The notes below the pieces were generated by a model. It was not told the DNA's origin, did no database searches, and was given only the letters and a program-made list of their open reading frames with translations. This document shows, piece after piece, positions 261-47,236 of a stretch of 64,000 nt of DNA. Position numbers and translations under genes: made by a program. Location: assembly GCA_944364075.1 (NCBI GenBank), contig CALVVZ010000001.1, positions 48 to 64,047 on the forward strand, given 5' to 3'. This DNA is from an uncultured Clostridia bacterium (lineage in GTDB: Bacteria > Bacillota > Clostridia > Christensenellales > Aristaeellaceae). Position 1 is the stretch's first letter. Every line of letters begins with the position of its first letter.

Positions 261-701
261 TCATGTATGATCCCTTCTGAATATAACCAGCGCCGAAGGG
301 AAAGGCGCTGCATTCCTGGCATTCCCAAATTTCAGCCTGCCGCGTATAAACTGCACTTCACCCTTCATGCAGTAATCATGCCACCACGCAGTATCGGTGC
401 GTGCTGGCAGCAGGCAGACAAAGAGACCCGCCGCCCCCCCCCCCCCCCCCCGCACACTCTCATAGGCTTTCTGTACCCATTTCCCGATTGTGCGGCCATA
501 GGGTGGATTCATCCAGCATCGGCCTGTCCACGGCTGCACAAGCCCATCCTGCTCCTCGGTATAGTATCGTGCGCACTTCGCATTACCAGGCGTTGCACAT
601 ACGTCAAGATCAAAGTGATATACCGCATCCTGTCTGTCGAAAAACTCCTTCGGTGTTTCCCACTCACAGGACGCAGAAGAAAACATAGCATCCCGATTCA
701 T
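261..701 (-). CDS. Phage DNA N6-adenine methyltransferase (small Dam/T1-type family)
   Basis: NPPYG catalytic motif (WMNPPYGR), plus FDLDVCA and LLPARTDTAWW blocks. The ATG at 701 overlaps the upstream stop as ATGA; the longest ORF reaches 734. Confidence 0.8.
   Translation of the reverse strand: MNRDAMFSSASCEWETPKEFFDRQDAVYHFDLDVCATPGNAKCARYYTEEQDGLVQPWTGRCWMNPPYGRTIGKWVQKAYESVRGGGGGAAGLFVCLLPARTDTAWWHDYCMKGEVQFIRGRLKFGNARNAAPFPSALVIFRRDHT
434..451. repeat. 18-nt homopolymer (C18 on plus strand, G18 in the Dam coding strand)
   Basis: Counted directly: c434 through c451. In the Dam frame it encodes R-GGGGG-A and is currently in frame. Confidence 0.95.
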
Positions 702-1027
702 TCTGTCATTTCCCCCTTGCCTGTTGCTCTGCAATATTCCTGATGGATCGCCTCAAACGCATTTTCCCACACCTCGCCATGATCTGCATCTGCGCCAACA
801 GCCACATGTGCCAGTTCATGTGCCAGTATCTCTACGGCATGTTTCACCGGCAAATCTGCGCTGATGAATATTTCCGGGGACATTCGCGGATTATCAGAGA
901 ACAGCGTTACGCCGTGCGCGTCCTTAAGATCATCCGTCCAGAAGCAGAAGCAATCATTGTCGGGATAGAGCTTTTTGAATGCTTCATAGACCCTTACAAA
1001 CGGGTCGTTTACGAATAATTTCTCCAT
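698..1027 (-). CDS. Small HExxH metallopeptidase-like protein
   Basis: 109-aa ORF with a HELAH motif. GGAGG Shine-Dalgarno upstream of the ATG at 1027. Translationally coupled to the Dam gene. Confidence 0.55.
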   Translation of the reverse strand: MEKLFVNDPFVRVYEAFKKLYPDNDCFCFWTDDLKDAHGVTLFSDNPRMSPEIFISADLPVKHAVEILAHELAHVAVGADADHGEVWENAFEAIHQEYCRATGKGEMTE

Positions 1028-1030
1028 AAC

Positions 1031-1624
1031 TCACCGCCTCCTCGTCAGGTTGAATTTCATAAGGCTCTCGTCGATCTCCTCCTGGATCACGCCAATATAA
1101 ATAAGCGTTTCCCGGCGGGAGGAATGGCATAGAATCCTTTGCAGGCTCACCACGTCCTGTGTCATCTTGTAATAGTGATAGCCGAAGGTCTTGCGCAGCG
1201 TATGGCAGCCGATATGATCCTTGATACCGGCCTTGCGGGCAATCTCGTTGATGATCTGATAGGCCCGCTGGCGCGTGATGGGGCGCGGCTTGTGATCCGG
1301 CCCGCGCTGCTTGCTTTGGAGGATGTATTCATCGCCGCTGCGGCCTGCCAGCAGGCGGTTTATATCCCTCCTGGCGTGCGGGTTGATAAGGATTTTCGCC
1401 TCTTTGCCGGTCTTTTGCGCCTTGATCTCGGCATAATCCTGCCCGCGCAAGTCCCGCACCCGGAAACGGCGAATATCTGATATGCGCAGGGATGTGTTGA
1501 AACCGACGACCAGCAGCAGCTCCCAGCTCACTTCGCCGGTCTTGCGCTTCCTGTCGTGTTCATGGGCTATATCGAGGCACTTATAAAGCAGCTCCATGTC
1601 CCGGATCGGCTGCACCGCTTTCAT
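1031..1624 (-). CDS. Short tyrosine recombinase (catalytic domain only, 197 aa)
   Basis: Integrase-family catalytic signature: LRISD (Arg), HTLRKTF (His-x-x-Arg), LCHSS (His) and LIYIG (Tyr). There is no N-terminal core-binding domain. Confidence 0.75.
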   Translation of the reverse strand: MKAVQPIRDMELLYKCLDIAHEHDRKRKTGEVSWELLLVVGFNTSLRISDIRRFRVRDLRGQDYAEIKAQKTGKEAKILINPHARRDINRLLAGRSGDEYILQSKQRGPDHKPRPITRQRAYQIINEIARKAGIKDHIGCHTLRKTFGYHYYKMTQDVVSLQRILCHSSRRETLIYIGVIQEEIDESLMKFNLTRRR

Positions 1625-2955: not shown

Positions 2956-4707
2956 TTAACCCTCCTCGACGGACGAATACTTGCCGCTGATCCAGCCGAT
3001 CTTGCCGCCAATCTCTACGGCGTGCCAGCCCAGAGCCTCGGCGGTAGCGATATAGGGCATGGTATCGCCCTTGTTTACGCGGGTCAGCACCTTGTATGTG
3101 GTGGCAGGGCCACTTCTCACATTCACGCTGCTGCCGGTAACATAGATGTGTTTGCTGGATGGCGTGTCGGGCGTATCGTCGCCGTCGCTGCCGTTCTCCC
3201 CCTTGGCGATGTCGTCAAGCACGCCCATCAGGGCCTTGTGGGTGATGCTGCCATACTTGCCGTCAACCTCAATTTGCGCGAAAGACTGGAATCGTTTCAC
3301 GGCCTTTTCAGTCTTTTCACCGAAGTTGCCATCCACGCCATCGCCCTTCGCGCCGTAGGTTCCAAGATCGTATCCCATTTCTTCCACGAGAATACTCTGC
3401 AAGTGGGACACGTCATCGCCCTTGCTGCCGCGCTTGAGCAGGCGGCTGCCCAGGGTGTACTTGACAGGTTCCGCCGTGCCGCCCTGTGCAGGCGTATTGG
3501 TATCAGCTTCCGTGCCATAGTCGATGAAGGGCAGCATGTACCAGTGCGTCCATTTGCCGGAAGAAAGCACGGTTTCTTTGCATCCGTAGGAAAAGCCCTT
3601 GAACTCGATGACCTTGCCATTGCCGACGTAATATCCGACATGGCCGGAGAAGGTCACGGCCAGACCGACGATCTCCGGGATGGTGCTGATCGTGCCCCAG
3701 GGCATACCCTTGTCCTTGGCGTAGGCAAACATGCTGTTTGCGCCCTTGTCCGGGCATTTGTTGGAGCCGTATTTGCTGGTGATGCTGTTGTCGTTGCCGA
3801 TGGCCTCCACAACACCCTCGCCGCCGTTCGTCCAGGCGTAGCCCTTGGCAGCGCCGATGCAGTCCGCGCACACTTCCTTGGCGGCAATGTGCTTGTTGTA
3901 GGTAGCGGTGCGGTTGTCCTTGTAGTGGCTGGGGTACTGCTTTGCCTTGCGGGTGCGCAGACTGTTGGTGCATTTGTAAATGCAAGTGCCGTACCAGTAC
4001 GGGCGACCCACCATTTCCTTCAGGAACGCTACAAAGTGTTCGTTGGAAAAGGGGATCAGCACGCGGTTGGTCGTGTTCTCTGTCATTTCCGATTCATCAT
4101 CCTTTCCATAGTTCGCCGCGATCTTCGCGCCGACATAATAAAAACCGAGTATCTCACGATACCCGATTCCGTGATTGGCAGCCCACGCCGCGCCATACTG
4201 GCTCATGCCTACGCCGTGGCCCTTGGTAATGCTTTTCCCGGCTGCTGTGCGTTCTGCGCAGGCCGCAGCGTCCCACGGGTCGTCCTGGGCGATCAGATAG
4301 GGCCGGTAGCCGCCCCAGCGCTCCTCGCTGCTGGTTGTGCGCCCGCCATTGGATGAAGAATAGCTGCAAGTCTTGAGGGGTTTCCCGTCGTAGGTAAGCA
4401 CCATACCGGCAGTAAGGGCCGCTGCCTCGTTGGCATTGGGATATTGCGAAGCATCCCAGCGCGAAGCGCGGAAAGCCTGATGGGTGCTGCTCTGGTCGGT
4501 GATGTACTTATCATCGCCGACATAGTTCATGGCGAATGTTCTGGCCGCGATAGCCTGCGCTTTGCAAGCCTCGATATGGGAGTTGCCGATCTCCGATGCA
4601 ACCACACCGGCGACATACTCCTCAATCTCGATGTTCACAATATCGCCCGCAACACAGCCGAAATAATTCAGATTCTCCGCCCGCGATAGCTTGACGCGGA
4701 TAATCAT
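2956..4707 (-). CDS. Multidomain endolysin (SpoIID/LytB-like, NlpC/P60-like, peptidoglycan-binding, SH3)
   Basis: SpoIID-like block (AQAIAARTF ... GHGVGMSQYGA). Cys/His hydrolase block (GRPYWYG ... CADCIG ... GHVGYYVG). PG_binding_1-like repeat (LKRGSKGDDVSHLQ ... FGEKTEKAVKRFQ). SH3-like C-terminus (VNVRSGP ... GWISGKY). Confidence 0.85.
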   Translation of the reverse strand: MIIRVKLSRAENLNYFGCVAGDIVNIEIEEYVAGVVASEIGNSHIEACKAQAIAARTFAMNYVGDDKYITDQSSTHQAFRASRWDASQYPNANEAAALTAGMVLTYDGKPLKTCSYSSSNGGRTTSSEERWGGYRPYLIAQDDPWDAAACAERTAAGKSITKGHGVGMSQYGAAWAANHGIGYREILGFYYVGAKIAANYGKDDESEMTENTTNRVLIPFSNEHFVAFLKEMVGRPYWYGTCIYKCTNSLRTRKAKQYPSHYKDNRTATYNKHIAAKEVCADCIGAAKGYAWTNGGEGVVEAIGNDNSITSKYGSNKCPDKGANSMFAYAKDKGMPWGTISTIPEIVGLAVTFSGHVGYYVGNGKVIEFKGFSYGCKETVLSSGKWTHWYMLPFIDYGTEADTNTPAQGGTAEPVKYTLGSRLLKRGSKGDDVSHLQSILVEEMGYDLGTYGAKGDGVDGNFGEKTEKAVKRFQSFAQIEVDGKYGSITHKALMGVLDDIAKGENGSDGDDTPDTPSSKHIYVTGSSVNVRSGPATTYKVLTRVNKGDTMPYIATAEALGWHAVEIGGKIGWISGKYSSVEEG

Positions 4708-4713
4708 TGGTTG

Positions 4714-4821
4714 TCACCGCCTTTCTCGGTCGCTGCCTGTGTGGAGTATGGCTGCCGTCATGAAGCCGATCATTGCGCAAAACGGGACGATCCAGAGCAG
4801 ATGCAGGATGTTGATTTTCAT
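4714..4821 (-). CDS. 35-aa single-TM peptide (possible holin/lysis accessory)
   Basis: Hand translation gives MKINILHLLWIVPFCAMIGFMTAAILHTGSDRERR. ATGA overlap with the upstream stop. Ends 7 nt before the endolysin start. Below the ORF-track size cutoff. Confidence 0.4.
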   Translation of the reverse strand: MKINILHLLWIVPFCAMIGFMTAAILHTGSDRERR

Positions 4822-5066
4822 AGGTCTATCACCTCGCCGCTCTCGCACCATGCCAGGAACCGGGCGCGTATGTCCTCCTCCATGCCGTCCCAGGGAACCA
4901 CGCCGCGAACAATCCGCACGCTGATGTCGTATTCCCTGAAACCATCCTCCGTGGGGTAAATGGTGACGTCCGGCATCAGGTAAACATCTACCGTGCCGTC
5001 GTCCTTCTCGTCGATGGCGTAAAAACGCCGCCCTTTTGCAGGCGGCTCTTTTGCATCCGGCAGCAT
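4818..5066 (-). CDS. Hypothetical protein (82 aa)
   Basis: The ATG at 5066 overlaps the RT stop codon as TAATG. The longest ORF reaches 5111. Confidence 0.5.
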   Translation of the reverse strand: MLPDAKEPPAKGRRFYAIDEKDDGTVDVYLMPDVTIYPTEDGFREYDISVRIVRGVVPWDGMEEDIRARFLAWCESGEVIDL

Positions 5067-6166
5067 TATGCCGCCTCCTTTCGCTGAAAAGCTATATTCC
5101 GCTCGATCCACAGCCGCACGCTATGGGCATTGCAGTTGACTGTCATGCCCATGTAGCTTTGCAAGGATTGCATTGCGCTGTCATAGCTGATGGCGTTGGC
5201 CGCGTAAAGCTCCGAAATATGCTTGAGGCAGCTCTTGATATGGCGGATGGTTTTCTTGCGCAGCCTCAGTCCATGAGGCGTTACGCGATAACCCACAAAT
5301 TCGCATCCCTGTGTAGCGGGGACAATCTGGCTCTTTGGGCTAAGATCAAGGTGCAGCTCGTCCCTGAGAAAGACATCAATCTGCGCCATGATCCGTCGTG
5401 CTTCTTCTTGTCCTTTGACCAGGATGCAGAAATCATCCATGTACCGAACATAGTAATGCAGGCCGAGTATGTGCTTGCAATACTGGTCAAGCCGGTTCAG
5501 ATAGATGTTTGCCGTTTCCTGGCTGGTCAGGTTGCCAATCGGCATACCCACATCATACAGCCGCTTCTCCTTCGGGCAGTCGTTCGCACTGGCTCCCGGC
5601 GGCAATCCAAAGGGAACGTCCGGGTTGTTGAGGATCACCGACATCAGCCGCAGAAACCACTCGTCGTCCGTGTAGTCCCGGTAGACATCCAGGGCGATTT
5701 TGTGATCCACGCGGTAGAAATACTTCGATACGTCGCACTTTATCAGCACCCAATCCCTTGTGTCGGGCTTTCGGCTGATAAGCTGCACCCAATTCAGCAG
5801 GCAGCGGGCCGCAGGGAGCGTGCCTTTGTTCTTCCTGCATCCGTAGCTGTGCTGAATAAAACGCTTGTCGGCGTATGGGTTGAGCTGACGATAGATGGCC
5901 CATTGCACCACTCGATCCCGGAACCCCAGCGCCATGATAAGGCGCGGTTTTGGGTACTTGACGTAGAACTCCCGGTACGGGCCGACGGTGTATGTGCCGT
6001 CCAACAGATCCTTTTGCAGATCAAAAAGGTTCTCCTCAAGGTTGAAGGTGAATGCCAGCACGTCCTCGCGGTAGTGCTTTTCCTTCGCGGCGTCCTCGTA
6101 TGCGGCATATAGGTTCTCAAAGGAACAGATGCGTTCTTTCAGATGTTGCAGCTTCTCCAAAGACAC
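5066..6166 (-). CDS. DGR reverse transcriptase
   Basis: YMDD box (YVRYMDDFCI) and the DGR-type motif 4 IGNLTSQ. Located directly 3' of a TR/VR pair. Start is either GTG 6166 or TTG 6160; the latter has better GGAGG spacing. Confidence 0.93.
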   Translation of the reverse strand: MSLEKLQHLKERICSFENLYAAYEDAAKEKHYREDVLAFTFNLEENLFDLQKDLLDGTYTVGPYREFYVKYPKPRLIMALGFRDRVVQWAIYRQLNPYADKRFIQHSYGCRKNKGTLPAARCLLNWVQLISRKPDTRDWVLIKCDVSKYFYRVDHKIALDVYRDYTDDEWFLRLMSVILNNPDVPFGLPPGASANDCPKEKRLYDVGMPIGNLTSQETANIYLNRLDQYCKHILGLHYYVRYMDDFCILVKGQEEARRIMAQIDVFLRDELHLDLSPKSQIVPATQGCEFVGYRVTPHGLRLRKKTIRHIKSCLKHISELYAANAISYDSAMQSLQSYMGMTVNCNAHSVRLWIERNIAFQRKEAA

Positions 6167-6493
6167 GCCTCCGTTTCAACCATGCGTGGCGTTTCCGCTC
6201 GGCGTAGGCTGTTTTTCTCTCCCGCAGGCAAGCCCGTCTAAAGGATAAGCTGCCAGCAGCCATAGCCTTACGCCCCTCCGGGCGCTTCATGGGGATTCGT
6301 AATCTGCATGTTTCCTCAATAGGTGCAGGTTACGAGTGTTGTTTCCGGGATATATTATCGCGTATCACGCATGTATGCGCGTTATAACGCGCACGCCCGC
6401 GTAGCGATTACGAAAACCCTCCCGGACGGAAATGCACCCCTCCCGTTTCTGTGCTGCCGGTCGTTCGTAACGTGCCGGTCACTCGCTGTGATC

Positions 6494-6614
6494 GGGAGCG
6501 CGGGCGACCGCCATAGTTCGCGTTGGCGTTGGAACGCGGGTTGTTGCAATTCAGATAAGCCATGCCCGCGTTGGACGTGTTGTTGTAGTTGCCGCCGCGC
6601 CGCGCCACGCGCTC
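6494..6614 (-). repeat. DGR template repeat (TR), 121 nt
   Basis: Aligns base for base with 7157..7277. All 9 mismatches fall at plus-strand T, which is sense-strand A in the TR. The surrounding ORF 6408..6662 is Asn-rich (AAY) and is not a gene. Confidence 0.92.
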
Positions 6615-6674
6615 ACAAAAGGCCGTGGCAATAATGGCCGCCAATTCTCGGCGCATTCCCAATATGTAAAAGCA

Positions 6675-7088
6675 TCAGGCTTTCACATCGTCTTTCCGTT
6701 CTGCCTGCTGCTTGAGCCATCCGCCGATGATCCTGCCGATCTCGATGTTCAGAAGCACCCATTCCTCATGCTGACCCGGAGTAATCAGGCCGCGCTTCTC
6801 GCCTCGCTTATCCGTGAAGGTCGTCTTGGCAATCCTGCGGATATGGATGCGCACCTGGGCGTTCTTGATGTCCAGCTCTTGCAGGGTAGTTTTCTTGTGG
6901 TACTTCTTCGCCGCAGCAATGCACAGTTCTTCCATGTCGGCCAGCAGCTTATAAAGCCTCTCGCCGTAGGAATTTTTGTACAGGCGCGGCCACCTGTTCA
7001 CCGCACCATCCACCCGGTTCAGCAGATCGTCGATCTTTTGCAGGGCAAATTGCCCATTTAGCAGGGCGTCATCATTAAAATTGCTCAT
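6675..7088 (-). CDS. DGR accessory variability determinant (Avd-like, 137 aa)
   Basis: Small basic helical protein located between the target gene and the TR, which is the canonical Avd position. Confidence 0.7.
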   Translation of the reverse strand: MSNFNDDALLNGQFALQKIDDLLNRVDGAVNRWPRLYKNSYGERLYKLLADMEELCIAAAKKYHKKTTLQELDIKNAQVRIHIRRIAKTTFTDKRGEKRGLITPGQHEEWVLLNIEIGRIIGGWLKQQAERKDDVKA

Positions 7089-7099
7089 AGCATCAGAAA

Positions 7100-7124
7100 G
7101 GGGGATGCGCTATCGCGCACCCCC
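7100..7124 (-). promoter_or_regulatory. GC-rich hairpin 22 nt downstream of the DGR target stop codon (DGR target-recognition hairpin and/or terminator)
   Basis: ggggg(a)tgcgc (7100..7110), loop tatc, gcgcaccccc (7115..7124). On the sense strand it lies about 33 nt 3' of the VR end. Confidence 0.6.
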
Positions 7125-7145
7125 ACAGGATTCAGACATCAGGGT

Positions 7146-8363
7146 TCAGGTTTCACGGGAGCGCGGGCGACCGCCATAGTGCGCGCCGGCGTAGGAACGC
7201 GGGTTGTGGCAATTCAGACAAGCCATGCCCGCGTTGGACGTGAGGTGGTAGTTGCCGCCGCGCCGCGCCACGCGCTCGTCCTGCGTCATCTGTACATAGA
7301 AATAGCCCTGAACGGTCGTGCCGGAAATGGGGGCTAGACCCAGCTCGTACATGATGGACGGCATGTAGGGAATATTGGTCGTGTTCACGGCAATCTGGCT
7401 GAACGTCGTGCCGCGATATTCGTTGTCGAAGGTCGGCTCCACCGTGTCAATGGTGATCTTGCTGTTCTGCCAGGTGTAGTGAAGCGTGCCGGGAGTGCCG
7501 GGGGCAACCAGCGTATAGCCGTTGTCGGTCTTGTTGGGCAGGATCGCTTTCCACGCACCGTTGGCGGAGCAGTCGGCGGTCGCGTCGGCAGCGTTGTTGT
7601 TGTCGCCGAGAATCTGGATTTCGCAGTTGACCAGACGGAAACCGTATACCTGTTCAAAGGCATTGCCCTGGATGTCACACAGGTTGCCGGGATCGCTGCC
7701 GAGATACCAGTCGATGGGGCCGGAGCCAGTCAGGGTGTTGTAGCCACTGAACTTGCTATCCGCGTTGTACTGGCTGGGGTTTGCAGGCGTGCCGCCCACA
7801 TGCTTTCCCTTCTTCCAATACAGCGGAGAATCCACGGGCAGCAGCTCCTCAGAGGAAGTATGCGCCTTGATGCACTCATACAGCCAGCCACGGAAAGAGC
7901 GCTTGTCGCCGACGTTGTAGCTCTTTGCCAGCTCCCAAGGCGTAGCGTCTCGGTAGTCGCAGCCGTAATAGTTGTTGCCGTGCGGCTCCCACTTGTTCTT
8001 GTGGGCCAGCAGCAGCATAAAGCCGTGGTCGGCAATGGTGATGCCGGATGCGCCGTTGCCAAAGGCACGCATCTTCTGCAAGAACGTGTCATGGTGCATG
8101 GAAACGCGCGGGGGCATGTTGGGGAGGGAATACTGAGTACCGTTGCCCTCCAGCTCGGAGGACATGTACTTACCGATCAGGATAGCATCCTCCTCAACAT
8201 TGTTGATGACGAAAGCCGGGTGGACGTGATCCGGCAGGGAAGCGTCCAGATCGGAGCTTTTCATCTTCGGGAATTTGCAGAAAATACTCGGATTTCCTTT
8301 CGCGTCATACTGCACTACGTTGCCATACTGACGCGCAAGCTGTTCCAGAGGGGAATTGTTCAT
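7146..8363 (-). CDS. DGR variable target protein (receptor-binding tail fibre candidate with a C-type-lectin/FGE-like C-terminus)
   Basis: 405 aa. The last ~40 codons are the VR (RVARRGGNYHLTSNAGMACLNCHNPRSYAGAHYGGRPRS). The RGG ... GGRP pattern resembles CLec-fold DGR targets. Sits at the fibre end of the tail operon. Confidence 0.88.
   Translation of the reverse strand: MNNSPLEQLARQYGNVVQYDAKGNPSIFCKFPKMKSSDLDASLPDHVHPAFVINNVEEDAILIGKYMSSELEGNGTQYSLPNMPPRVSMHHDTFLQKMRAFGNGASGITIADHGFMLLLAHKNKWEPHGNNYYGCDYRDATPWELAKSYNVGDKRSFRGWLYECIKAHTSSEELLPVDSPLYWKKGKHVGGTPANPSQYNADSKFSGYNTLTGSGPIDWYLGSDPGNLCDIQGNAFEQVYGFRLVNCEIQILGDNNNAADATADCSANGAWKAILPNKTDNGYTLVAPGTPGTLHYTWQNSKITIDTVEPTFDNEYRGTTFSQIAVNTTNIPYMPSIMYELGLAPISGTTVQGYFYVQMTQDERVARRGGNYHLTSNAGMACLNCHNPRSYAGAHYGGRPRSRET
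7157..7277 (-). repeat. DGR variable repeat (VR), 121 nt
   Basis: 112 of 121 positions are identical to the TR. Differences at plus-strand 7181, 7186, 7187, 7193, 7208, 7219, 7243, 7244 and 7247 all oppose TR adenines. Confidence 0.92.
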
Positions 8364-8381
8364 GCTGCATTATCCTCCTTA

Positions 8382-8882
8382 TCAGGTCTTGAGTTTCCAC
8401 AGGGAAGGAACGTTCGGGGGTTCCCATCCAGTCTGCGAGGTGTGTCCCTGCAAACAGATGTAGGTGCTGCCCTCGTAGGTGCATTCCGCGCCCGTGGCGT
8501 AATCGGTATCGGGCTGCCATTCAGTGCTGCCTTCCGGCTGCACACGACGGAAAAGCGACTGCCTGGCCGTGCCGGGTTCCCACCCGGTCTGCGTGGTGTG
8601 CGCCTGAATGACGACGAACATGCTGCCGCCGTACATCACGGTATCGCCGACAGCAAGTTTCATGTCGGGCTGCCATTCAGGCGTTGCGGCGCTCATGTCA
8701 ATCAGTTCCTCGTCGGTTGCTGCATCGTTGGCGACGGCATAGCGCAGGCCCGCGTCAATCCTGCGACGGACGGCGCGGAAGGGCGCGATCTTCGCCTGAC
8801 GTGCGGCCTCCCGCTGTCTTTCCATCTCGGCAATTTCCTCGTCGGTCATGCCGGGTTCGTAGGGCATGTGAACTTCACTCAT
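8382..8882 (-). CDS. Fibre-associated protein with two CBM5/12-like carbohydrate-binding repeats
   Basis: Tandem ~42-aa repeats of the form EWQPD..G....Y.GS......HT.QTGWEP....SL(F/W), at aa 69-111 and 121-162. Confidence 0.6.
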   Translation of the reverse strand: MSEVHMPYEPGMTDEEIAEMERQREAARQAKIAPFRAVRRRIDAGLRYAVANDAATDEELIDMSAATPEWQPDMKLAVGDTVMYGGSMFVVIQAHTTQTGWEPGTARQSLFRRVQPEGSTEWQPDTDYATGAECTYEGSTYICLQGHTSQTGWEPPNVPSLWKLKT

Positions 8883-8897
8883 GGTTTATCCTCCTTA

Positions 8898-9182
8898 TCA
8901 GGTAGTCAGGGCGGCGGTCTGTGCCTCAAGCTCCTCGATGCGGTCAGCCTGCGCCCGGAGCTGTGCCTGGGTGATGGTGGCATACATGTCGAACGCGACC
9001 GAAAGATGCTGCAAGGCGTCCTCGATGTTGTTGAAGTTGGTCGCGCTTTGCGGCGTACCCTGTTGCAAGACCTCGCCGGGTGCAGGGGTATGGGTCACGC
9101 TGCCGTCGGCGTTGGTGACTTCGGTAAAAGTCCTCGGACGCTCGACAACGTGATCCTGCCATTTGGTGCGGTTAAAGGCCAC
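8898..9182 (-). CDS. Hypothetical tail-fibre-region protein (94 aa)
   Basis: ORF in operon register between the tail-protein-I-like gene and the fibre genes, with a coiled-coil C-terminus. Confidence 0.55.
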   Translation of the reverse strand: MAFNRTKWQDHVVERPRTFTEVTNADGSVTHTPAPGEVLQQGTPQSATNFNNIEDALQHLSVAFDMYATITQAQLRAQADRIEELEAQTAALTT

Positions 9183-9195
9183 GGGTCATTCCTCC

Positions 9196-9501
9196 TTATT
9201 CTTCGATGATGGTAAAGCGGAAACGGTACAGAATACCTTCCTGCGCATCCTTCCGCGTGATGCTCTCGGCCTTGCTTGCCCACAGCGTACCGTTGTGGTC
9301 GAAAAGCTGTACTTCCGTCACGGTGATGTTGCCCGCTACGGTGTGGTCGATGATGAAGGTAACTGCGATACGGCCATCAGCAAGCACCTCGGCGGTCTGG
9401 ATTTCCGCCTGGTAGTAGGTGCTGCCGACTTTGTATCTTGCATACGCAATGCTGTTTTTCAGGTGATTGCGCAGCGAATTAAGGGCGCTATTCGTCAGCA
9501 T
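9196..9501 (-). CDS. Hypothetical tail-fibre-region protein (101 aa)
   Basis: ORF in operon register with normal amino-acid composition. Confidence 0.55.
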   Translation of the reverse strand: MLTNSALNSLRNHLKNSIAYARYKVGSTYYQAEIQTAEVLADGRIAVTFIIDHTVAGNITVTEVQLFDHNGTLWASKAESITRKDAQEGILYRFRFTIIEE

Positions 9502-41474: not shown

Positions 41475-42131
41475 TCAGCCCTCCAGCAGATCGCCGAACA
41501 GTGGGGGCAGATAGCCAGCCATCACCCGGAGCAGCGGCAGCGCCACCTCGCGCATCTGCGGGTGCGGAGCGCCAGTCGTACCGAGCGCACGCAGTTTGAA
41601 GAAATGACGCCATTCGCGGATGTTAGCCGTCATGACGACCTCTGTTTTCGTGCTGGTGGGCAGCACATCACGCGCCATCTGCGGCATATCGCCAATCTCA
41701 AGCAGATCGAAGTATGCCTTTTCGCACGCCTCACAGGCTTTCTTCCACACATCGTAGGATGGGGAACCCTCGCGCCAGAAGCAAGGTTCAATCACCGTAA
41801 TCTCGCTGCCGAACTGATCTTTGGCATAGTTGCAGTAGCGCGTGCTTTCCTGGGCGAAGCTGGCAAGGCGATGCCGCACAAGCTCATGGCTCACGCCGCG
41901 ATCCACGATGAATCGCACCGTCAGGCTGGCATGTTCCAGCATGGCCTCATGACCGCGAGATACCAGCGCTTTGATGAACGTCTCAGCGGTGTCCTCGCCG
42001 ATCTTGTACTCGGTTTTGTAGCATACGCGGCCCGCCTGCTCGATGGCGCTGTAAATTGCCTTGCGGCTTGCATCGTCTATCTTCTGCGGTCGCATAACCT
42101 CAAAACCGGCCCGAATGATTCTCAACCTCAA
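41475..42131 (-). CDS. thyX: FAD-dependent thymidylate synthase ThyX
   Basis: ThyX signature RHRLASFAQESTRY (RHRxxSxxxxSxR), plus a downstream REWRHFFKLR block. TTG start at 42131; ATG at 42095 is possible. Confidence 0.88.
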   Translation of the reverse strand: MRLRIIRAGFEVMRPQKIDDASRKAIYSAIEQAGRVCYKTEYKIGEDTAETFIKALVSRGHEAMLEHASLTVRFIVDRGVSHELVRHRLASFAQESTRYCNYAKDQFGSEITVIEPCFWREGSPSYDVWKKACEACEKAYFDLLEIGDMPQMARDVLPTSTKTEVVMTANIREWRHFFKLRALGTTGAPHPQMREVALPLLRVMAGYLPPLFGDLLEG

Positions 42132-42154
42132 ACACCCTCTTTCAGTTTTCGATA

Positions 42155-42228
42155 TGGAGCTACCGGCAGGAATCGAACCCGCGTCCCCTGATTACGAATC
42201 AGGCGCTTTCCCTTTAAGCTACGGCAGC
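42155..42228 (-). tRNA. tRNA-Thr (anticodon CGU), CCA encoded
   Basis: Hand-folded cloverleaf. Acceptor GCTGCCG pairs with CGGTAGC (one G-U pair). D arm GCTT-AAAGGGA-AAGC. Anticodon arm CCTGA-TTCGTAA-TCAGG. T arm GCGGG-TTCGATT-CCTGC. Discriminator T, then CCA. Confidence 0.88.
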
Positions 42229-42597
42229 GTAGCGCCTGCTTTTTCTGCTCTCAAAGTCAGTCGGGGCAGGCTTCCCGTCCTCTCCGTGCAGGACTGTGCG
42301 GCGTCGCTCTCCGTCGTGTCGCAGTTGCTATCGGTCTGTGTTCCGTCCGGCTGGCTACGGATGGGCGCGACCCAGCAGCGCACCCGTCTGTCCGAGCTGT
42401 CAAGCGTTGCTCACTTCCGCTTTGCCACCGTGCGATATTGACCGTACCCACGGGATCGTAAGGTTTACTATGCCGCCTTTCGCTCCTGAAAGTCGCTGTC
42501 GAAACCTCAAAGACCGTTGTCTACGGACGGTTTTTCGTTGCCCGGTCGTGCCGGGGCGGCTCCCAGGCCGTAGGGAGCTTGCTGAACCGTAAAGCCC

Positions 42598-42676
42598 TGG
42601 TGGAGCAGGAAGGAATCGAACCTCCCGTGCATCCTCCGCACATGTGGAATACTGCACGCCGTCCTTTGGCTGCTCC
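42598..42676 (-). ncRNA. Non-canonical tRNA-like module (79 nt, ends ...CTGCTCC-A-CCA)
   Basis: 7-bp acceptor GGAGCAG with CTGCTCC. T arm GGAGG-TTCGATT-CCTTC. Encoded CCA. In place of an anticodon arm there is a 6-bp helix (CGTGCA with TGCACG) closing a 21-nt region. Confidence 0.5.
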
Positions 42677-42836
42677 ATGATTGCCCGTCTCTCCGGGCTG
42701 TCCCGCAAACCATGCTAAAAGGGCCTTGCGGTTGGTCACTCGTACTCGCATGGTGAACCCCGGTATCATCGCTTCCGTTACTGTTCCGGGTGGCTTTGCC
42801 CATGGTTGATCGCTCCATGAACACGGAATGCCATAC

Positions 42837-42939
42837 TGGCGGGAACGAGGGGCATCGAACCTCCATTTTTTCCACGGGCCGCGCTGACATCAAAAGAATG
42901 GCTGACCTCGTGGCATACCCGATCCAGACGGGCGTTCCC
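42837..42939 (-). ncRNA. Non-canonical tRNA-like module (103 nt, ends ...CGTTCCC-G-CCA)
   Basis: 7-bp acceptor GGGAACG with CGTTCCC. D-like hairpin CCCG-TCTGGAT-CGGG starting at position 8. T arm GGAGG-TTCGATG-CCCCT with one A-C mismatch. A ~43-nt irregular helix stands where the anticodon arm should be. Encoded CCA. Confidence 0.5.
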
Positions 42940-42964
42940 ATGTTATGCCGGTCTTTCCCGGCAG

Positions 42965-43261
42965 TCACTCGCCCCTCTCAAGGTTTTCCTCACACCATTT
43001 GAGGGCCGCGTTATACTTGAGCCATCCAAGCACGCATATCTGATCGTTGGTGCCGAAGCGGAAAACACATGCTTTGCGCTCCCGGCCCTCGGTGTAAAAG
43101 GACGCGCCGATCTTGCCATCCCAGGGCGTTTTCTCCTTCTGGCGGCACGTCACGCTCCAAACCCTCGCCACATTCATGACCTCGGAGGCGCTGCCGTCCT
43201 TGCACAGCTCCACAATCGCCTTGAGCTGTTCGGGATTGCGGAAAACGAAACGCTTTGCCAT
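42965..43261 (-). CDS. Hypothetical protein (98 aa)
   Basis: ORF in register. Confidence 0.55.
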   Translation of the reverse strand: MAKRFVFRNPEQLKAIVELCKDGSASEVMNVARVWSVTCRQKEKTPWDGKIGASFYTEGRERKACVFRFGTNDQICVLGWLKYNAALKWCEENLERGE

Positions 43262-43262
43262 G

Positions 43263-43739
43263 TCATACCTCCTGTATCTCGATCCCCAGGCAGTTTTTCA
43301 TCTGCCGTCTTTTCAGCCGATAGGTCTTGTCCTTGCGGGTCGCTTCGCTCTTGGCGTCGTATACGGTGTATGTGCCGTCAGCTTCCTGGGTTACGAAATC
43401 CGCTATGTACTTCACGCCGCCCGGAAGGTAGAAAACAACCTGGCAGGCAAGGCCGATGTGCTTACCGGCAAGGCATTCCAGCCGCAGCAGCTCGTATACC
43501 TGGGCTTCGTGCTTGCTGTCAAAGCGTTTGCCGTCGTATTCGGTTGGCTGATTTCTATACTTCCGTTCCCTCGGTTTGGGATCGGCGTCATAGAGCCGCT
43601 GCTGGTTGTTCTCGTCGAGGTCAACAAGAACCGTTTCGCGCTCCTTGTCGTGTCTGGGATTTGTCCGCACATCGGGCATCTTCTGGCCGGTGCGCTTGCA
43701 GTAATCCCGGAGCCATTTATCCGAAACATAAAAGGCCAT
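43263..43739 (-). CDS. DUF1064 family nuclease-like protein
   Basis: EYDGKRFDSKHEAQVYELL ... YIADFV ... VYDAKSEATRKDKTYRLKRRQM matches the DUF1064 pattern (.YDG..FDSK.EA ... Y.ADF ... D.K ... K). Confidence 0.7.
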   Translation of the reverse strand: MAFYVSDKWLRDYCKRTGQKMPDVRTNPRHDKERETVLVDLDENNQQRLYDADPKPRERKYRNQPTEYDGKRFDSKHEAQVYELLRLECLAGKHIGLACQVVFYLPGGVKYIADFVTQEADGTYTVYDAKSEATRKDKTYRLKRRQMKNCLGIEIQEV

Positions 43740-43747
43740 CTTCTACC

Positions 43748-43960
43748 TCATACCGCCACACCGGCAGCCTCGCACGCTTCCTTGTATCTGCGCATACGCT
43801 CTGCCAGCAGCTTTCCTATGTCCTGCGTCAACCCCGATGCGGATTCCTCCGCGCCGTCCTCCGCCTTGATGTACAGCGGCACAGCAGGAAGGAAATCGCC
43901 GGTCGCCGGATCGCGCAGGGCAGTGACGCCAACCTGGATGAAACGTTCCTGCTTTTCCAT
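43748..43960 (-). CDS. Hypothetical protein (70 aa)
   Basis: ORF in register after the cro-like gene. Confidence 0.5.
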   Translation of the reverse strand: MEKQERFIQVGVTALRDPATGDFLPAVPLYIKAEDGAEESASGLTQDIGKLLAERMRRYKEACEAAGVAV

Positions 43961-43962
43961 AA

Positions 43963-44181
43963 TTACACCGCCTTTGCGCTCATAGGATCACAGCGAGAGA
44001 ACAGATACCGGGCGTTGTACTCCGGCAACAGAACTTCCATGACCTTTTCCGCTTCCGGGTAAGTGAAGTCGGTAAGGCCCATCAGCTTGTTGTAGGCCGT
44101 CTTTTCGGACACGTTCAGGAAGTCCGCAAAGGCTTTGGTGGAAATCCCCTTGGCAGTAAGAACATTCTTGATATTGAGCAT
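43963..44181 (-). CDS. Cro-like HTH regulator (72 aa)
   Basis: HTH segment (ISTKAFADFLNVSEKTAYNKL). Divergent from the repressor gene. GGAGGTGG Shine-Dalgarno. Confidence 0.7.
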   Translation of the reverse strand: MLNIKNVLTAKGISTKAFADFLNVSEKTAYNKLMGLTDFTYPEAEKVMEVLLPEYNARYLFSRCDPMSAKAV

Positions 44182-44199
44182 AAATTACCACCTCCGAAT

Positions 44200-44275
44200 T
44201 ACCCTTGCTCGTATATCTGCACCTATCATATACCCTTACTCGTAGTTTGTCAATAGTTTTTTACCGCTGGTCGTA
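44200..44275. promoter_or_regulatory. Three 14-bp operator-like repeats TACC(C/G)(T/C)T(G/A)(C/G)TCGTA spaced exactly 31 bp apart
   Basis: Copies at 44200..44213, 44231..44244 and 44262..44275. The middle copy fills the spacer of the leftward promoter. Confidence 0.6.
44225..44253 (-). promoter_or_regulatory. Leftward early promoter (TTGACA-17-TATGAT)
   Basis: -35 is plus 44248..44253 (tgtcaa) and -10 is plus 44225..44230 (atcata). Confidence 0.6.
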
Positions 44276-44284
44276 TTTTTTTAC

Positions 44285-44312
44285 TTTACAAAACCGCCGC
44301 CGATGATATAAT
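44285..44312 (+). promoter_or_regulatory. Rightward repressor promoter (TTTACA-16-TATAAT)
   Basis: -35 at 44285..44290 and -10 at 44307..44312. GGAGGTG Shine-Dalgarno at 44329..44335 before the ATG at 44341. Confidence 0.6.
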
Positions 44313-44340
44313 AGAGAAGAAAACGCTTCGGAGGTGTGAT

Positions 44341-44715
44341 ATGGACTTTTTAGAGAAGGTTAATCTGCTTATGCAGGAGCGCAAACTGAATAGGCATACT
44401 CTTTCGGAAGCCTGTGGCATTCCTTATACAACAATAGATGGATGGTTCAAGAAGGGATATGAAGGTGCGAAGGTCAGCACTCTTATAAAACTTGCCGACT
44501 ATTTCTCCGTAGAACTCGATTACCTGGTCAGGCCGTCTATCACAGATCGTAACTACGGCAGGCAGATTGAAAACATAGGAGCAGATGAAAAAGAACTCCT
44601 GACCCTTTATCGCTCCATGAACGATGTGGGTAGGAGTTTGATGCTGACCAACGCACGAACTTTCGCCGGGAATCCCGACATGCAAAAAGAAAGGCAAAGC
44701 GCGTCGGCAATATGA
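44341..44715 (+). CDS. CI-like XRE-family repressor (124 aa)
   Basis: N-terminal HTH (LNRHTLSEACGIPYTTIDGWFK). Divergent from the cro-like gene and next to the integrase end. Confidence 0.75.
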   Translation: MDFLEKVNLLMQERKLNRHTLSEACGIPYTTIDGWFKKGYEGAKVSTLIKLADYFSVELDYLVRPSITDRNYGRQIENIGADEKELLTLYRSMNDVGRSLMLTNARTFAGNPDMQKERQSASAI

Positions 44716-44744
44716 TATTCGTCGATTTTGAAAGGTAATGTGCT

Positions 44745-45392
44745 ATGAAACGTATAGTTGGTATCGTGGTCGCCTTATTGCTCCTCGCGTCCTGCGCCTT
44801 TGCAGAAGGGACGACGGAAAAGAAAAACGCATTTGAGTTTTGCGACATGTATATGCAGCGCTTGTGGGAAATGAAGTATGAGCGCGGATTGGATGCTACG
44901 CACGATCTGGCTCACTACATAGGGTACGACGGCCTTTCGTATGCGAATATGTTTGCAGGCGACGGCCAATATTACGTCGAAGTGCCTGCGGGAACGCTCC
45001 TTGTTTCCGTTCCTGACTTTAGCGTGATCCAACTTAGAATGCAGCTCGTAGCCTACAACCGCAGCGACGCAGAGAAGGAAACCGACATGATCCGGGCGGC
45101 AGTAGCTTTTGCAGCCCTTGAGTATGACAGGCTTGACGATTATTCCTATCCGCTTCTGCATCAGATTGACCCGACGAAGCCAGAAAACGTCATGCTTGAA
45201 GTAATAGACATCTTCTTTGATGCCGTGAACGGCACATTCAATGACGCCGATCTGATGGATGGCTTTTTCTCGGAGAATGGAAATAAAATCCCATTCATTT
45301 CCGGCAACTATGAGTATTCGCTGCAATACATCAACGGTGGCGAGGAAAACCCAGAGGTTGAAGTCGTTTACCTGATCGCTGAATGTAAATAA
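44745..45392 (+). CDS. Prophage-encoded lipoprotein (moron; superinfection-exclusion candidate)
   Basis: Signal peptide with lipobox (VVALLLLASC). The gene appears noticeably less GC-rich than the phage average (spot counts, e.g. 40% for 44821..44880). Co-oriented with the repressor. Confidence 0.65.
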   Translation: MKRIVGIVVALLLLASCAFAEGTTEKKNAFEFCDMYMQRLWEMKYERGLDATHDLAHYIGYDGLSYANMFAGDGQYYVEVPAGTLLVSVPDFSVIQLRMQLVAYNRSDAEKETDMIRAAVAFAALEYDRLDDYSYPLLHQIDPTKPENVMLEVIDIFFDAVNGTFNDADLMDGFFSENGNKIPFISGNYEYSLQYINGGEENPEVEVVYLIAECK

Positions 45393-45514
45393 AAAATCCG
45401 CCCAGGCTGCTACCTGTGCGGATCAAACGCAAGGAAAATGCAAACACCACTAAGCACTTTCCGCAGTCAGTATATCACAAGCTGCCTGCGTTGTAAAGTC
45501 GGAAAGGATTAAGA

Positions 45515-47236
45515 TTGAACGCTGTAATCTATGCCCGTTTCTCGTCGCACAGCCAGCGGGAGCAGTCCATCGAAGGTCAGCTCCGGGATTGCTACGAGTA
45601 TGCCAAACGCTATGATATAAACATTGTCGGTGAATACATCGACCGCGCCATATCCGGCATGACAGATGACCGCCCGGACTTCCAGCGCATGATTGCCGAT
45701 GCTCCGAAAAAGCAGTTTGAGCGGATCATCGTCTGGAAGCTGGATCGTTTTGCCCGCAATCGTTACGATTCGGCCCTCTACAAGCACAAACTCAAGCAAT
45801 ACGGCATCCGCGTCATATCTGCCATGGAGAACGTCGGAGAAGGGGACGAATCAATTCTCTTGGAAGCCCTCCTTGAAGCGTCCGCCGAGTATTATTCCCT
45901 CGATCTCAAGAAAAAGATCCTTCGCGGCCAGCGTGAAACCATTGCAAAGGGCCGTTGGTGTGGCGGGCCTATCCCGTATGGCTACAAGGCAGTGGATGGA
46001 AAGCTGGTGGCGGACGAAAAGACCGCACCGATCATCCGCTATGTTTTTGAGCAGTACGCCCAGGGCGTCCCCATGAAGGAGATTATCGACGAACTGAAAC
46101 GTCGCGGCGTCCGCAGCTCTCGCGGCGGAGAGCTGACCTATACCACCTTCTCCCGCGCCCTGACAAATCCCGTCTATATCGGCAATTTCATGTACAAGGG
46201 CGAATTGGTTCCTGGCGTCGCAGACGCATTGATCGACGAGGACACATACAACAAAGTGCAGATTATCGTAAAGGCCAATGCGCACGCGCCTGCCGCCAAC
46301 AAGGCAAAGGTGGAATATCTGTTTCAAGGAAAGGCGTTCTGCGGGCATTGCGGGTCGCACATGGTCGGGGAAAGCGGAAAGAGCAGGAACGGTGATGTGT
46401 ATTATTACTACTCCTGCGCGGCTCGGAAAAAAGCGCACAAATGCCGGAAGAAGAACGAGAAGAAGGACTTCATCGAGTGGTATGTCGTCGAGCAGACATT
46501 GAATTATGTCCTCACGCCAACCAGGATGCGTGACATCGCAAAAGCCGTTGTCGCGGAGTATGACAAGGAGTTTTCCGGCAGTAAGGTGCAGGAATACGAA
46601 AAGGCCATCAAGCAGTACGAGCGGGAGCTGGATAAACTGGTCGATGCTCTGGTAGATGCTCCGAAGGTAGCCCATAAGCGCATCTACGAGAAGATGGAAA
46701 CCCTGGAAACGCAGAAAGCGTCCATGGAGAATGAGCTGGTCAAGCTGCGGATCGCCAGCGAGATTCGTTTCACCGAAGAAGAAGTGCGGGCATGGCTCCG
46801 CCGCTTCTGCACCGGCGACCTCTTTGATCCTGAGTTCCGCCGCAACATCATCGACACCTTTATCAACTGCATTTACCTGTACGATGATCGCATCATCATC
46901 TTCTACAACATCAAAGGCGGCAAACAGGTTTCCTTTGTTGACCTTGCCGAATCGTTGGATAGCGAATCAGAGAGCAGTGGTTCGGATTTGAACGCAAATG
47001 CTCCACCAGAGCGAAAATCCGAACCTTCGTGGTTCGGATTTTTTTTGCGTTTTTTAACCCAGGCATGCTGGGCGCAGCCTGTCCGGGGATACCGCCCAGA
47101 GGCCGGGCTTGCGCACGGAACGCAACCCGAAGCAAAACCGGCGGCCGCCCCAAATGGGCGGACCGCCGGCTTCATGTATGGCATGTTGCCGCTGTTGCCT
47201 GCCGCGATGGCAGGCGAAAAACTCAGTTGCAGCTGA
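45515..47236 (+). CDS. Large serine recombinase (integrase); the 3' ~70-90 codons are read-through into host DNA
   Basis: Resolvase-type catalytic N-terminus (AVIYARFSSHSQ ... DRFARN). Recombinase and zinc-ribbon region (CGHCGSHM ... YYYSC) followed by a coiled coil. TTG start. The ORF then crosses the terminator at 47015..47046 and ends 14 nt inside pyk. Confidence 0.85.
   Translation: MNAVIYARFSSHSQREQSIEGQLRDCYEYAKRYDINIVGEYIDRAISGMTDDRPDFQRMIADAPKKQFERIIVWKLDRFARNRYDSALYKHKLKQYGIRVISAMENVGEGDESILLEALLEASAEYYSLDLKKKILRGQRETIAKGRWCGGPIPYGYKAVDGKLVADEKTAPIIRYVFEQYAQGVPMKEIIDELKRRGVRSSRGGELTYTTFSRALTNPVYIGNFMYKGELVPGVADALIDEDTYNKVQIIVKANAHAPAANKAKVEYLFQGKAFCGHCGSHMVGESGKSRNGDVYYYYSCAARKKAHKCRKKNEKKDFIEWYVVEQTLNYVLTPTRMRDIAKAVVAEYDKEFSGSKVQEYEKAIKQYERELDKLVDALVDAPKVAHKRIYEKMETLETQKASMENELVKLRIASEIRFTEEEVRAWLRRFCTGDLFDPEFRRNIIDTFINCIYLYDDRIIIFYNIKGGKQVSFVDLAESLDSESESSGSDLNANAPPERKSEPSWFGFFLRFLTQACWAQPVRGYRPEAGLAHGTQPEAKPAAAPNGRTAGFMYGMLPLLPAAMAGEKLSCS
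47015..47046 (+). terminator. Intrinsic terminator inside the integrase ORF tail
   Basis: aaatccgaacc (47015..47025) pairs with ggttcggattt (47031..47041). The T8 run at 47039..47046 begins within the 3' arm. Confidence 0.6.
47131..47169 (-). terminator. Probable pyk terminator
   Basis: 13-bp interrupted stem: ccggcgg+ccgccc (47138..47150) pairs with gggcgg(a)ccgccgg (47156..47169). Followed on the minus strand by TTTTGCT. Confidence 0.55.

Follow-up and report, generated by a model that had tools for sequence, protein, structure and literature searches.

The prototype diversity-generating retroelement (DGR), that of Bordetella phage BPP-1, carries in this order the gene for its target protein Mtd, avd, a template repeat (TR), and the gene for its reverse transcriptase (RT), bRT. 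In BPP-1, nucleotide A56 of the spacer (Sp) RNA serves as the primer of cDNA synthesis and is base-paired beside the base that is templated first, which lies in the GC-rich TR 3' end (PMC6182149); misincorporation at adenines by bRT-Avd in vitro amounts to 52%, and R74 and I181 of bRT are two residues shown to promote adenine mutagenesis (PMC7826257). Other described relatives are TaqVP (PDB 5VF4), the variable protein of a Thermus aquaticus DGR, which has an FGE-type C-type-lectin fold with a C-terminal variable repeat (VR) and is monomeric and not phage-borne (10.1101/432187), and the Faecalibacterium phage FP_Lagaffe (MG711461, Lagaffevirus); published work also describes Faecalibacterium prophages rich in DGRs (PMC11792537). 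Here we describe a locus on the minus strand of a 64-kb stretch of contig CALVVZ010000001.1 (the whole stretch is called the window below), which we read, with a probability of roughly 96%, as a canonical DGR in a contractile-tail prophage, about 44 kb long, of an uncultured Clostridia genome from an animal or human gut.

The cassette has the order of BPP-1, and the first-pass annotation had placed its four parts correctly: on the minus strand, the target open reading frame (ORF; 8363-7146) is followed by avd (7088-6675), the TR (6614-6493), a 326-nt spacer, and the RT gene (6166-5066). The spacer length counts as a difference from BPP-1. The module order of FP_Lagaffe is identical to that of the window, running from baseplate P2 J-like and P2 I-like genes through three small ORFs, target, Avd-like gene, TR, and RT to small ORFs and an endolysin. 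Its target, annotated as 'BPP-1 major tropism-determinant-like protein', is homologous to that of the window over 99% of its length at about 27% identity, and the two RT regions can be aligned at the DNA level (67%). The host of FP_Lagaffe is likewise a member of the gut Clostridia, of a lineage different from the Clostridia/Christensenellales type of the window. When known phages were searched at the nucleotide level, only FP_Lagaffe and Clostridium phage Saumur matched, weakly and in the RT (67-71%), and no close cultured relative was found.

The TR (6493..6614) and the VR (7156..7277), both on the minus strand, match over 122 nt without a gap, and the homology ends sharply at both edges. 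The gapless alignment proposed in the first-pass annotation therefore stands, and its length of 121 nt has to be extended by one base at the 3' end. Realignment bears out that the repeats differ at nine positions, each of them an adenine in the TR sense strand (9 of the 26 TR adenines); every other TR position is identical in the VR (95 in the 121-nt version of the repeat, 96 in the 122-nt version), and the hypergeometric chance of nine of nine mismatches falling on the 26 adenine sites is 2.8e-7. When the whole window was searched with the TR by blastn-short, the known pair alone was found, with no third TR-like copy and no additional VR.

The VR lies in frame with the target ORF and occupies codons 363-403, at the C-terminal end of a 405-aa protein as had been predicted. 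All 26 TR adenines stand at codon position 1 or 2 and none at position 3, and no substitution of an adenine in the TR can create a stop codon. Ten TR codons are of the AAY type (nine AAC and one AAT), and 16 codons in all are variable, for a theoretical repertoire of about 1.8e15 proteins. The earlier reading that the new residues of the VR derive from AAY asparagine codons is corrected in one point: the cysteine comes from a TAT (tyrosine) codon.

Public data hold more than 1000 relatives of the target, whose own 90%-identity cluster has 686 members. Among the 15 members of this cluster that were read, the variable C-terminal columns (371-375, 377, 380, 382, 384, 386, 387, 391, 393, 395, and 396) are exactly the TR codons that contain adenine, and the adenine-free codons of the region are invariant. 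As a proxy for read mapping, metagenome and viral contigs were scanned without bias by the two adenine-free flanks alone, between which 77 positions were free. Across 12 non-redundant TR/VR pairs, TR adenines were substituted at 151 of 300 sites (50%, compared with the 52% measured for BPP-1 in vitro) and other bases at 4 of 1140 (0.35%), which is the population-level answer to whether mismatches also fall on non-adenine sites. The TR of the window recurs unchanged in 10 other public contigs, every one with a different VR. In two further loci (L002 and L059), non-adenine changes of the TR are mirrored in the locus's own VR and therefore indicate transfer of sequence from TR to VR. When 46 loci that encode related RTs were each compared with themselves de novo, TR/VR pairs with adenine-only mismatches came out in about 25. 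Taken at the level of sequence, these data point to a DGR lineage active in mutagenic homing, and by extension from the lineage this particular copy is probably active as well.

The RT (5066..6166, minus strand) is 366 aa long from the GTG at 6166, the start given in the first-pass annotation. The ORF itself was correctly called, but a start at the TTG at 6160, which gives 364 aa, is likelier: it lies 7 nt past a GGAGG and aligns with the ATG or TTG starts of homologues, whereas the GTG lies 1 nt past this ribosome-binding site. The protein matches Pfam RVT_1 (5.5e-21) and phrog_1423 (1.1e-118) and carries the motifs KPRLI (with R75), IGNLTSQ (210-216), and an intact YMDD (242-245), the last two as first noted. 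DGR RTs bear the signature [I/V/L]GxxxSQ in place of the QGxxxSP of group II intron and retroviral RTs (PMC7826257), and IGNLTSQ, shared in type with BPP-1, is an instance of it beside the catalytic YxDD. The closest solved relative is 8ub7_A (E 2.6e-38, 135 bits), which we read as BPP-1 bRT since its partner chain in the same entry is named Avd; group II intron RTs follow at about 5e-17 (65 bits). The alignment shows that bRT R74 and I181 have conserved counterparts in the window protein. By similarity the protein groups with DGR RTs rather than with the group II intron or retron clades. Group II intron RT/maturase is its best-scoring NCBIfam RT model, at 118 bits against a cutoff of 300 (TIGR04416), with no Rfam group II intron match across the window, and retron and Drt models stay far below their cutoffs (Retron_St85_RT, 26 bits against 235; Drt2, Drt3a, and Drt4, 24-43 bits against 200-450). 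An Rfam search of the whole window at gathering thresholds returned a tRNA as its sole match, without any family of DGR, group II intron, or retron RNA.

Next to the TR stands the accessory gene. The 137-aa product of avd, the accessory variability determinant (6675..7088, minus strand), which had been called Avd-like, is identified as Avd by Pfam (bAvd PF22296, 58.4 bits against a cutoff of 40) and by PHROG (phrog_3206, 'Avd protein of DGR', 1.3e-23), so that the locus has an accessory protein of one of the types (Avd or HRDC) that adjoin the TR and RT of DGRs.

The DNA beyond the variable codons also has the form expected of a DGR target site, in which an adenine-free, GC-rich VR end resembling the IMH (initiation of mutagenic homing) element is accompanied by a hairpin with a GRNA loop. 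The final 21 nt of the repeat, TGGCGGTCGCCCGCGCTCCCG (7156..7176 in the VR, minus strand), contain no adenine, are GC-rich and the same in TR and VR, and are followed directly by the divergence of the two copies; by analogy with the IMH of BPP-1 (PMC3240598), this segment probably plays the IMH/IMH* role. A GC-rich hairpin whose 10-bp stem carries a GATA loop lies 31 nt past the VR (7101..7124, minus strand; RNA fold -23 kcal/mol, z -3.3) and is a candidate target-recognition hairpin or cruciform. In related loci the loop is constantly G(A/G)TA and the stems vary in sequence yet stay complementary. Published DGR target-recognition hairpins or cruciforms have a GC-rich stem of 7-10 bp and a 4-nt GRNA loop and stand 4-34 bp after the VR (Guo et al., 2011, PMC3240598), a consensus that the hairpin fits in stem, loop, and distance; BPP-1 shares the GRNA-loop, GC-rich hairpin after the VR, there at a distance of 4 nt. 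Because the consensus scan also gave a terminator-like match here, a double role as terminator of the target gene is possible. A second terminator-like hairpin, followed by GTTTTT (5027..5046, minus strand, found in the same kind of scan), lies 20 nt past the RT stop and probably marks the 3' end of the DGR transcription unit. Around it runs a 97-aa ORF (4818-5111, minus strand) with an internal ATG that overlaps the RT stop codon (TAATG). It has no family match and no BLASTP similarity to the first small ORF after the FP_Lagaffe RT, the one of the two small ORFs there with which it was compared, and is not counted as a DGR component; it may not be a real gene, because the strong terminator-like hairpin lies inside it.

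Between TR and RT, the spacer of the DGR RNA (6167..6492, minus strand) contains blocks whose conservation is seen when 8-18 loci are aligned. In the RNAalifold prediction one of them, AAACGGGAGGGG (6437-6448, Sp positions 45-56), pairs over a long range with the 3' end of the TR; the helix so formed encloses a small hairpin (6457-6478), and more conserved blocks follow downstream. In the 18-locus alignment, 92.6% of the cells of this helix are paired, compared with 44-66% when the partners are slid, compensatory changes occur in 8 of the 14 pairs, and covariation scores 0.40, the controls staying at or below 0.15; these figures come from the same alignment from which the helix was derived, and the minimum-free-energy fold of the window's own sequence favours an alternative pairing, both of which count against the helix. 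Individual folds of many homologues show the same layout, with an inner hairpin closed by a UACG-type loop; a column-wise scan of the MAFFT alignment did not detect this inner hairpin, which is out of register there. The geometry of this predicted pairing is analogous to the priming arrangement of BPP-1: the TR 3' end, adenine-free and GC-rich in both systems, would find its Sp partner some 50 nt further downstream, a distance that compares with the A56 priming site, and a priming site beside the helix would be the counterpart here. Two ORFs in this region, one of 84 aa spanning the TR (6408-6662) and one of 57 aa (6117-6290), were set aside as non-coding DGR RNA.

The target (7146..8363, minus strand) was identified by its ORF, by profile, and by an AlphaFold2 model with a Foldseek comparison as a TaqVP-type protein with the FGE subtype of the C-type-lectin fold, so that the fold proposed from the sequence is confirmed by both sequence and structure. 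A profile of 31 homologues matches TaqVP (5VF4) over nearly the full length with the VRs aligned (E 3.2e-39), and the model (pLDDT 90, pTM 0.90) superposes on it with a TM score of 0.74-0.81 (E 2.7e-30); TvpA, FGE, and Mtd are weak fold matches. On this sequence and model evidence the scaffold is TaqVP-like rather than Mtd-like. The two proteins share whole-chain homology and fold at 26% identity, and in both the VR is made of the C-terminal 40 or so residues, encoded mainly by AAY codons and ending in an invariant strand. The window protein differs in being phage-borne, within a tail module, in having 16 variable codons where TaqVP has 9, and in carrying a CBM5/12-like mini-domain at about aa 143-184, in the region of TaqVP insert 1'. 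This insert matches chitin-binding domains (rmsd 1.4 A over 48 aa), with Pfam CBM_5_12 at 25.6 bits, slightly under its cutoff of 26.2. The insert is shared with A0A8S5QF86, a 'ChiA1-BD-binding domain protein' of an uncultured gut Caudovirales phage (50% identity, TM 0.94), which is not distinguished from the window protein in structure and differs by sequence divergence only. A member of the same target family, at 25% identity over 95% of the query, is orf35 of Vibrio phage VHML, a phage listed among those with DGRs (PMC3240598). From BPP-1 the target differs in that Mtd is trimeric, whereas the window protein is a monomer-like globule of the TaqVP type. Directly upstream of the target, a 166-aa protein (8382-8882, minus strand) consists in part of two CBM_5_12 repeats (9e-26), which are also repeats at the DNA level with a period of 156 nt; the two proteins may together form a glycan-binding receptor complex.

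The prophage runs on the minus strand from terminase, portal, protease, and major head genes (about 29-22 kb) through sheath, tape measure, baseplate J, and P2-I (20.5-9.5 kb) to three small ORFs, the DGR, an endolysin with SpoIID, PG-binding, and SH3 domains, and integrase-like ORFs, with replication-type genes, thyX, and a tRNA-Thr at 30-44 kb. The first-pass annotation had called the target a distal tail-fibre gene. Its position distal to baseplate J and P2-I is confirmed, but its character as a fibre is not: the compact, globular protein lacks a fibre shaft as well as any coiled-coil or collagen region, and its likeness to Mtd is weak. We consider the target likely, from gene order, to be a tail-associated receptor-binding protein, and because it stands at the distal end of the tail/baseplate module the likely benefit of its diversification is rapid retargeting of phage adsorption. 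The strongest alternative is that the DGR is real and the target is some other adhesin of the virion surface, such as a decoration protein with mucus or glycans as its ligands, or else acts at the surface of the lysogen. The single shaftless globule would suit such a role; TaqVP is monomeric and not phage-borne, the likeness to the trimeric fibre-tip protein Mtd has a Foldseek probability of 0.05, other DGR targets of gut phages have been proposed to be capsid-decoration-like (PMC11792537), and PHROG 2889, the family of the target, has no assigned function. We nevertheless think this alternative unlikely, though far from negligible: the gene follows baseplate J, P2-I, and three small tail-module ORFs directly and stands ahead of the lysis genes, an arrangement shared with FP_Lagaffe, tail-fibre PHROGs are matched by the 94-aa and 166-aa proteins encoded upstream, many weaker fold matches of the target are annotated as tail collar fibre proteins, and CBM5/12 domains are found in phage tail proteins (9zd7, a short tail fiber). 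The match of phrog_5302 ('tail protein') covers only the VR segment of the target.

Several observations weigh against the reading of the locus as an intact DGR active in mutagenic homing. The window VR has 9 of 26 adenines changed, compared with 9-15 in the 11 other pairs, and a promoter scan of 4600-9300, which includes the cassette, found no promoter-like site. Avd reaches 61.4 bits with the NCBIfam model DivGenRetAVD, under the curated equivalog cutoff of 80, and resembles BPP-1 Avd (4dwl/8ub7_B) weakly, with marginal similarity in sequence, a point that also separates the two systems. Among relatives (IMG/VR and metagenome contigs), the VR of L055 has three T>G differences and that of L049 one T>C, all at non-adenine sites, and the TR of L057 holds two changes that are absent from its VR. 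These rare differences show that ordinary mutation also acts on the repeats, or that the TR has changed since the last homing event.

Some of these points would fit a genuine DGR by descent of which this copy is now inactive, the VR differences being fossils and the diversity of the family coming from other, active copies. The window VR is joint lowest with L055 among the 12 pairs in its number of changed adenines, the exact target protein occurs on 13 contigs, so that the VR allele must be stable enough to be sighted repeatedly, the cassette lacks a promoter-like site in the scan, and decay is seen among relatives, one of which has lost both avd and TR. The components, on the other hand, are intact, from a full-length RT with YMDD and the DGR motif to Avd, the IMH-like end, and the hairpin; the TR is that of 10 other loci, and there are none of the non-adenine differences between TR and VR that would build up after inactivation. 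We regard inactivity of this copy as improbable and prefer to see it as a DGR that is very probably active. That the repeats are instead an assembly artefact or an ordinary segmental duplication with random divergence, lying by chance beside an unrelated group II intron or retron RT, has in its favour the bare existence of the repeat and the group II intron model as top NCBIfam hit, and is refuted by the adenine-only mismatches (P about 3e-7), the affinity of the RT to bRT, the absence of group II intron or retron RNA from the window, the population counts, the recurrence of the same architecture in some 25 independently assembled loci, and the invariant TRs with different VRs of many independent assemblies, so that we give it next to no credence.

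A mechanism can be proposed for the DGR by homology with BPP-1 in all of its steps, and the sequence evidence is consistent with each. An RNA spanning at least part of avd, the TR, and Sp would be transcribed and bound by an RT-Avd complex, and the adenine-free, GC-rich 3' end of the TR would pair with the Sp block about 45-56 nt downstream. The cDNA would be self-primed from an Sp nucleotide beside this helix and extend through the TR, with the RT copying C, G, and U faithfully and pairing about half of the adenines with a randomly chosen base. The product would replace the VR within the final 41 codons of the target, the direction being fixed by the IMH-like 3' end together with the hairpin that has a GRNA loop downstream of the VR, and would randomise 16 residues on the predicted ligand-binding face of the TaqVP-type C-type-lectin domain of the structural model. 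The outcome would be up to about 1.8e15 variants, never with a stop codon, and the most likely benefit would be the retargeting of adsorption to changing surface receptors of the host.

We offer a further proposal, as a speculation more apt to fail than to hold: that the RNA module 3' of the TR is a family-wide scaffold of the DGR RNA and, in parallel, that the target is a two-part binder. The scaffold may consist of the helix that joins AAACGGGAGGGG to the TR 3' end, the enclosed hairpin with its UACG-type loop, a UUUCC block, and a second hairpin, a combination that has no Rfam match. The binder may place a constant glycan-binding CBM5/12 insert beside the hypervariable C-type-lectin face and act with the protein encoded upstream, in which there are two CBM5/12 domains. 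If the RNA scaffold is real, the priming site and the TR boundaries would be predictable from sequence across a large clade of Clostridia-phage DGRs. Rfam has no family model for DGR RNAs, and the TR-Sp helix that covaries across 18 loci could serve as the seed of one.

The survey of related loci also turned up variants of the cassette. Compared with the window, the spacer of the closest relative (L003; RT 99% identical, TR identical) holds an inserted segment of about 78 nt (3897-3974 of that locus), placed just upstream of where the RT begins. In a Christensenellales metagenome-assembled genome (MAG; CBFFZW010000017.1, L001) whose RT is 98% identical, a single VR-like repeat (3553-3674 of the locus) is fused to Sp and the RT, avd and TR are missing, and the junction falls within the last 22 or so nucleotides of the repeat; this is either a recombination between VR and TR that killed the DGR or an assembly collapse. 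A human gut contig (UOOD01018425, L048) has a VR-to-TR spacing of 503 nt, compared with 662-687 nt, which suggests that its avd is shortened or absent. The 86-kb contig JAFUDS010000015.1 carries two identical DGR loci (L004 and L005) about 63 kb apart and is possibly a concatemeric phage genome, and the isolate genome of Anaerovorax sp. IOR16 has three related RT copies (L016-L018), with TR/VR pairs detected in L016 and L018 only. Two archaeal MAGs of rumen Methanomethylophilaceae (L042 and L044) encode distant RTs (27% identity) with TR/VR pairs whose mismatches fall on TR adenines in 29 of 29 and 22 of 28 cases; their layout differs, in that the RT stands between the two repeats, preceded closely by the TR and followed at about 2.5 kb by the VR.

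The nearest genomes to the window are uncultured Clostridia/Christensenellales-type MAGs from goat caecum, and near-identical TRs are also present in human-gut assemblies. GC content rises from about 56% to 60-65% beyond approximately 45 kb, where host genes such as pyruvate kinase start. No direct repeat of at least 12 nt was found between 1-1100 and 42000-47300 that could mark attachment (att) sites at the ends of the prophage. Elsewhere in the prophage, the integrase-like sequence (698-1624, minus strand) is divided over two adjacent ORFs of 197 aa and 109 aa and may be disrupted. The 583-aa endolysin (2956-4707, minus strand) has an unusual combination of an N-terminal SpoIID-like domain with PG_binding_1 and SH3_3, and directly upstream of it lies a hydrophobic-looking ORF of 35-45 aa (4714-4851). 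In the early region, the tRNA-Thr (CGU; 42155-42228, minus strand) stands beside thyX (41475-42131).

As biology the locus is confirmatory and opens no new question: it belongs to a well-known kind of DGR, syntenic with a published phage DGR, and its modest points of its own are the CBM5/12 insert and the covarying TR-Sp helix. It provides a clean example for annotation, in which RT motif, Avd, TR, IMH-like end, GRNA hairpin, TR-Sp pairing, and C-type-lectin target can be placed at base resolution, and it adds one more well-resolved, apparently active DGR to those of gut-Clostridia phages. With more than 1000 relatives of the target and hundreds of variants in a 90%-identity cluster, these phages make heavy use of targeted hypermutation.

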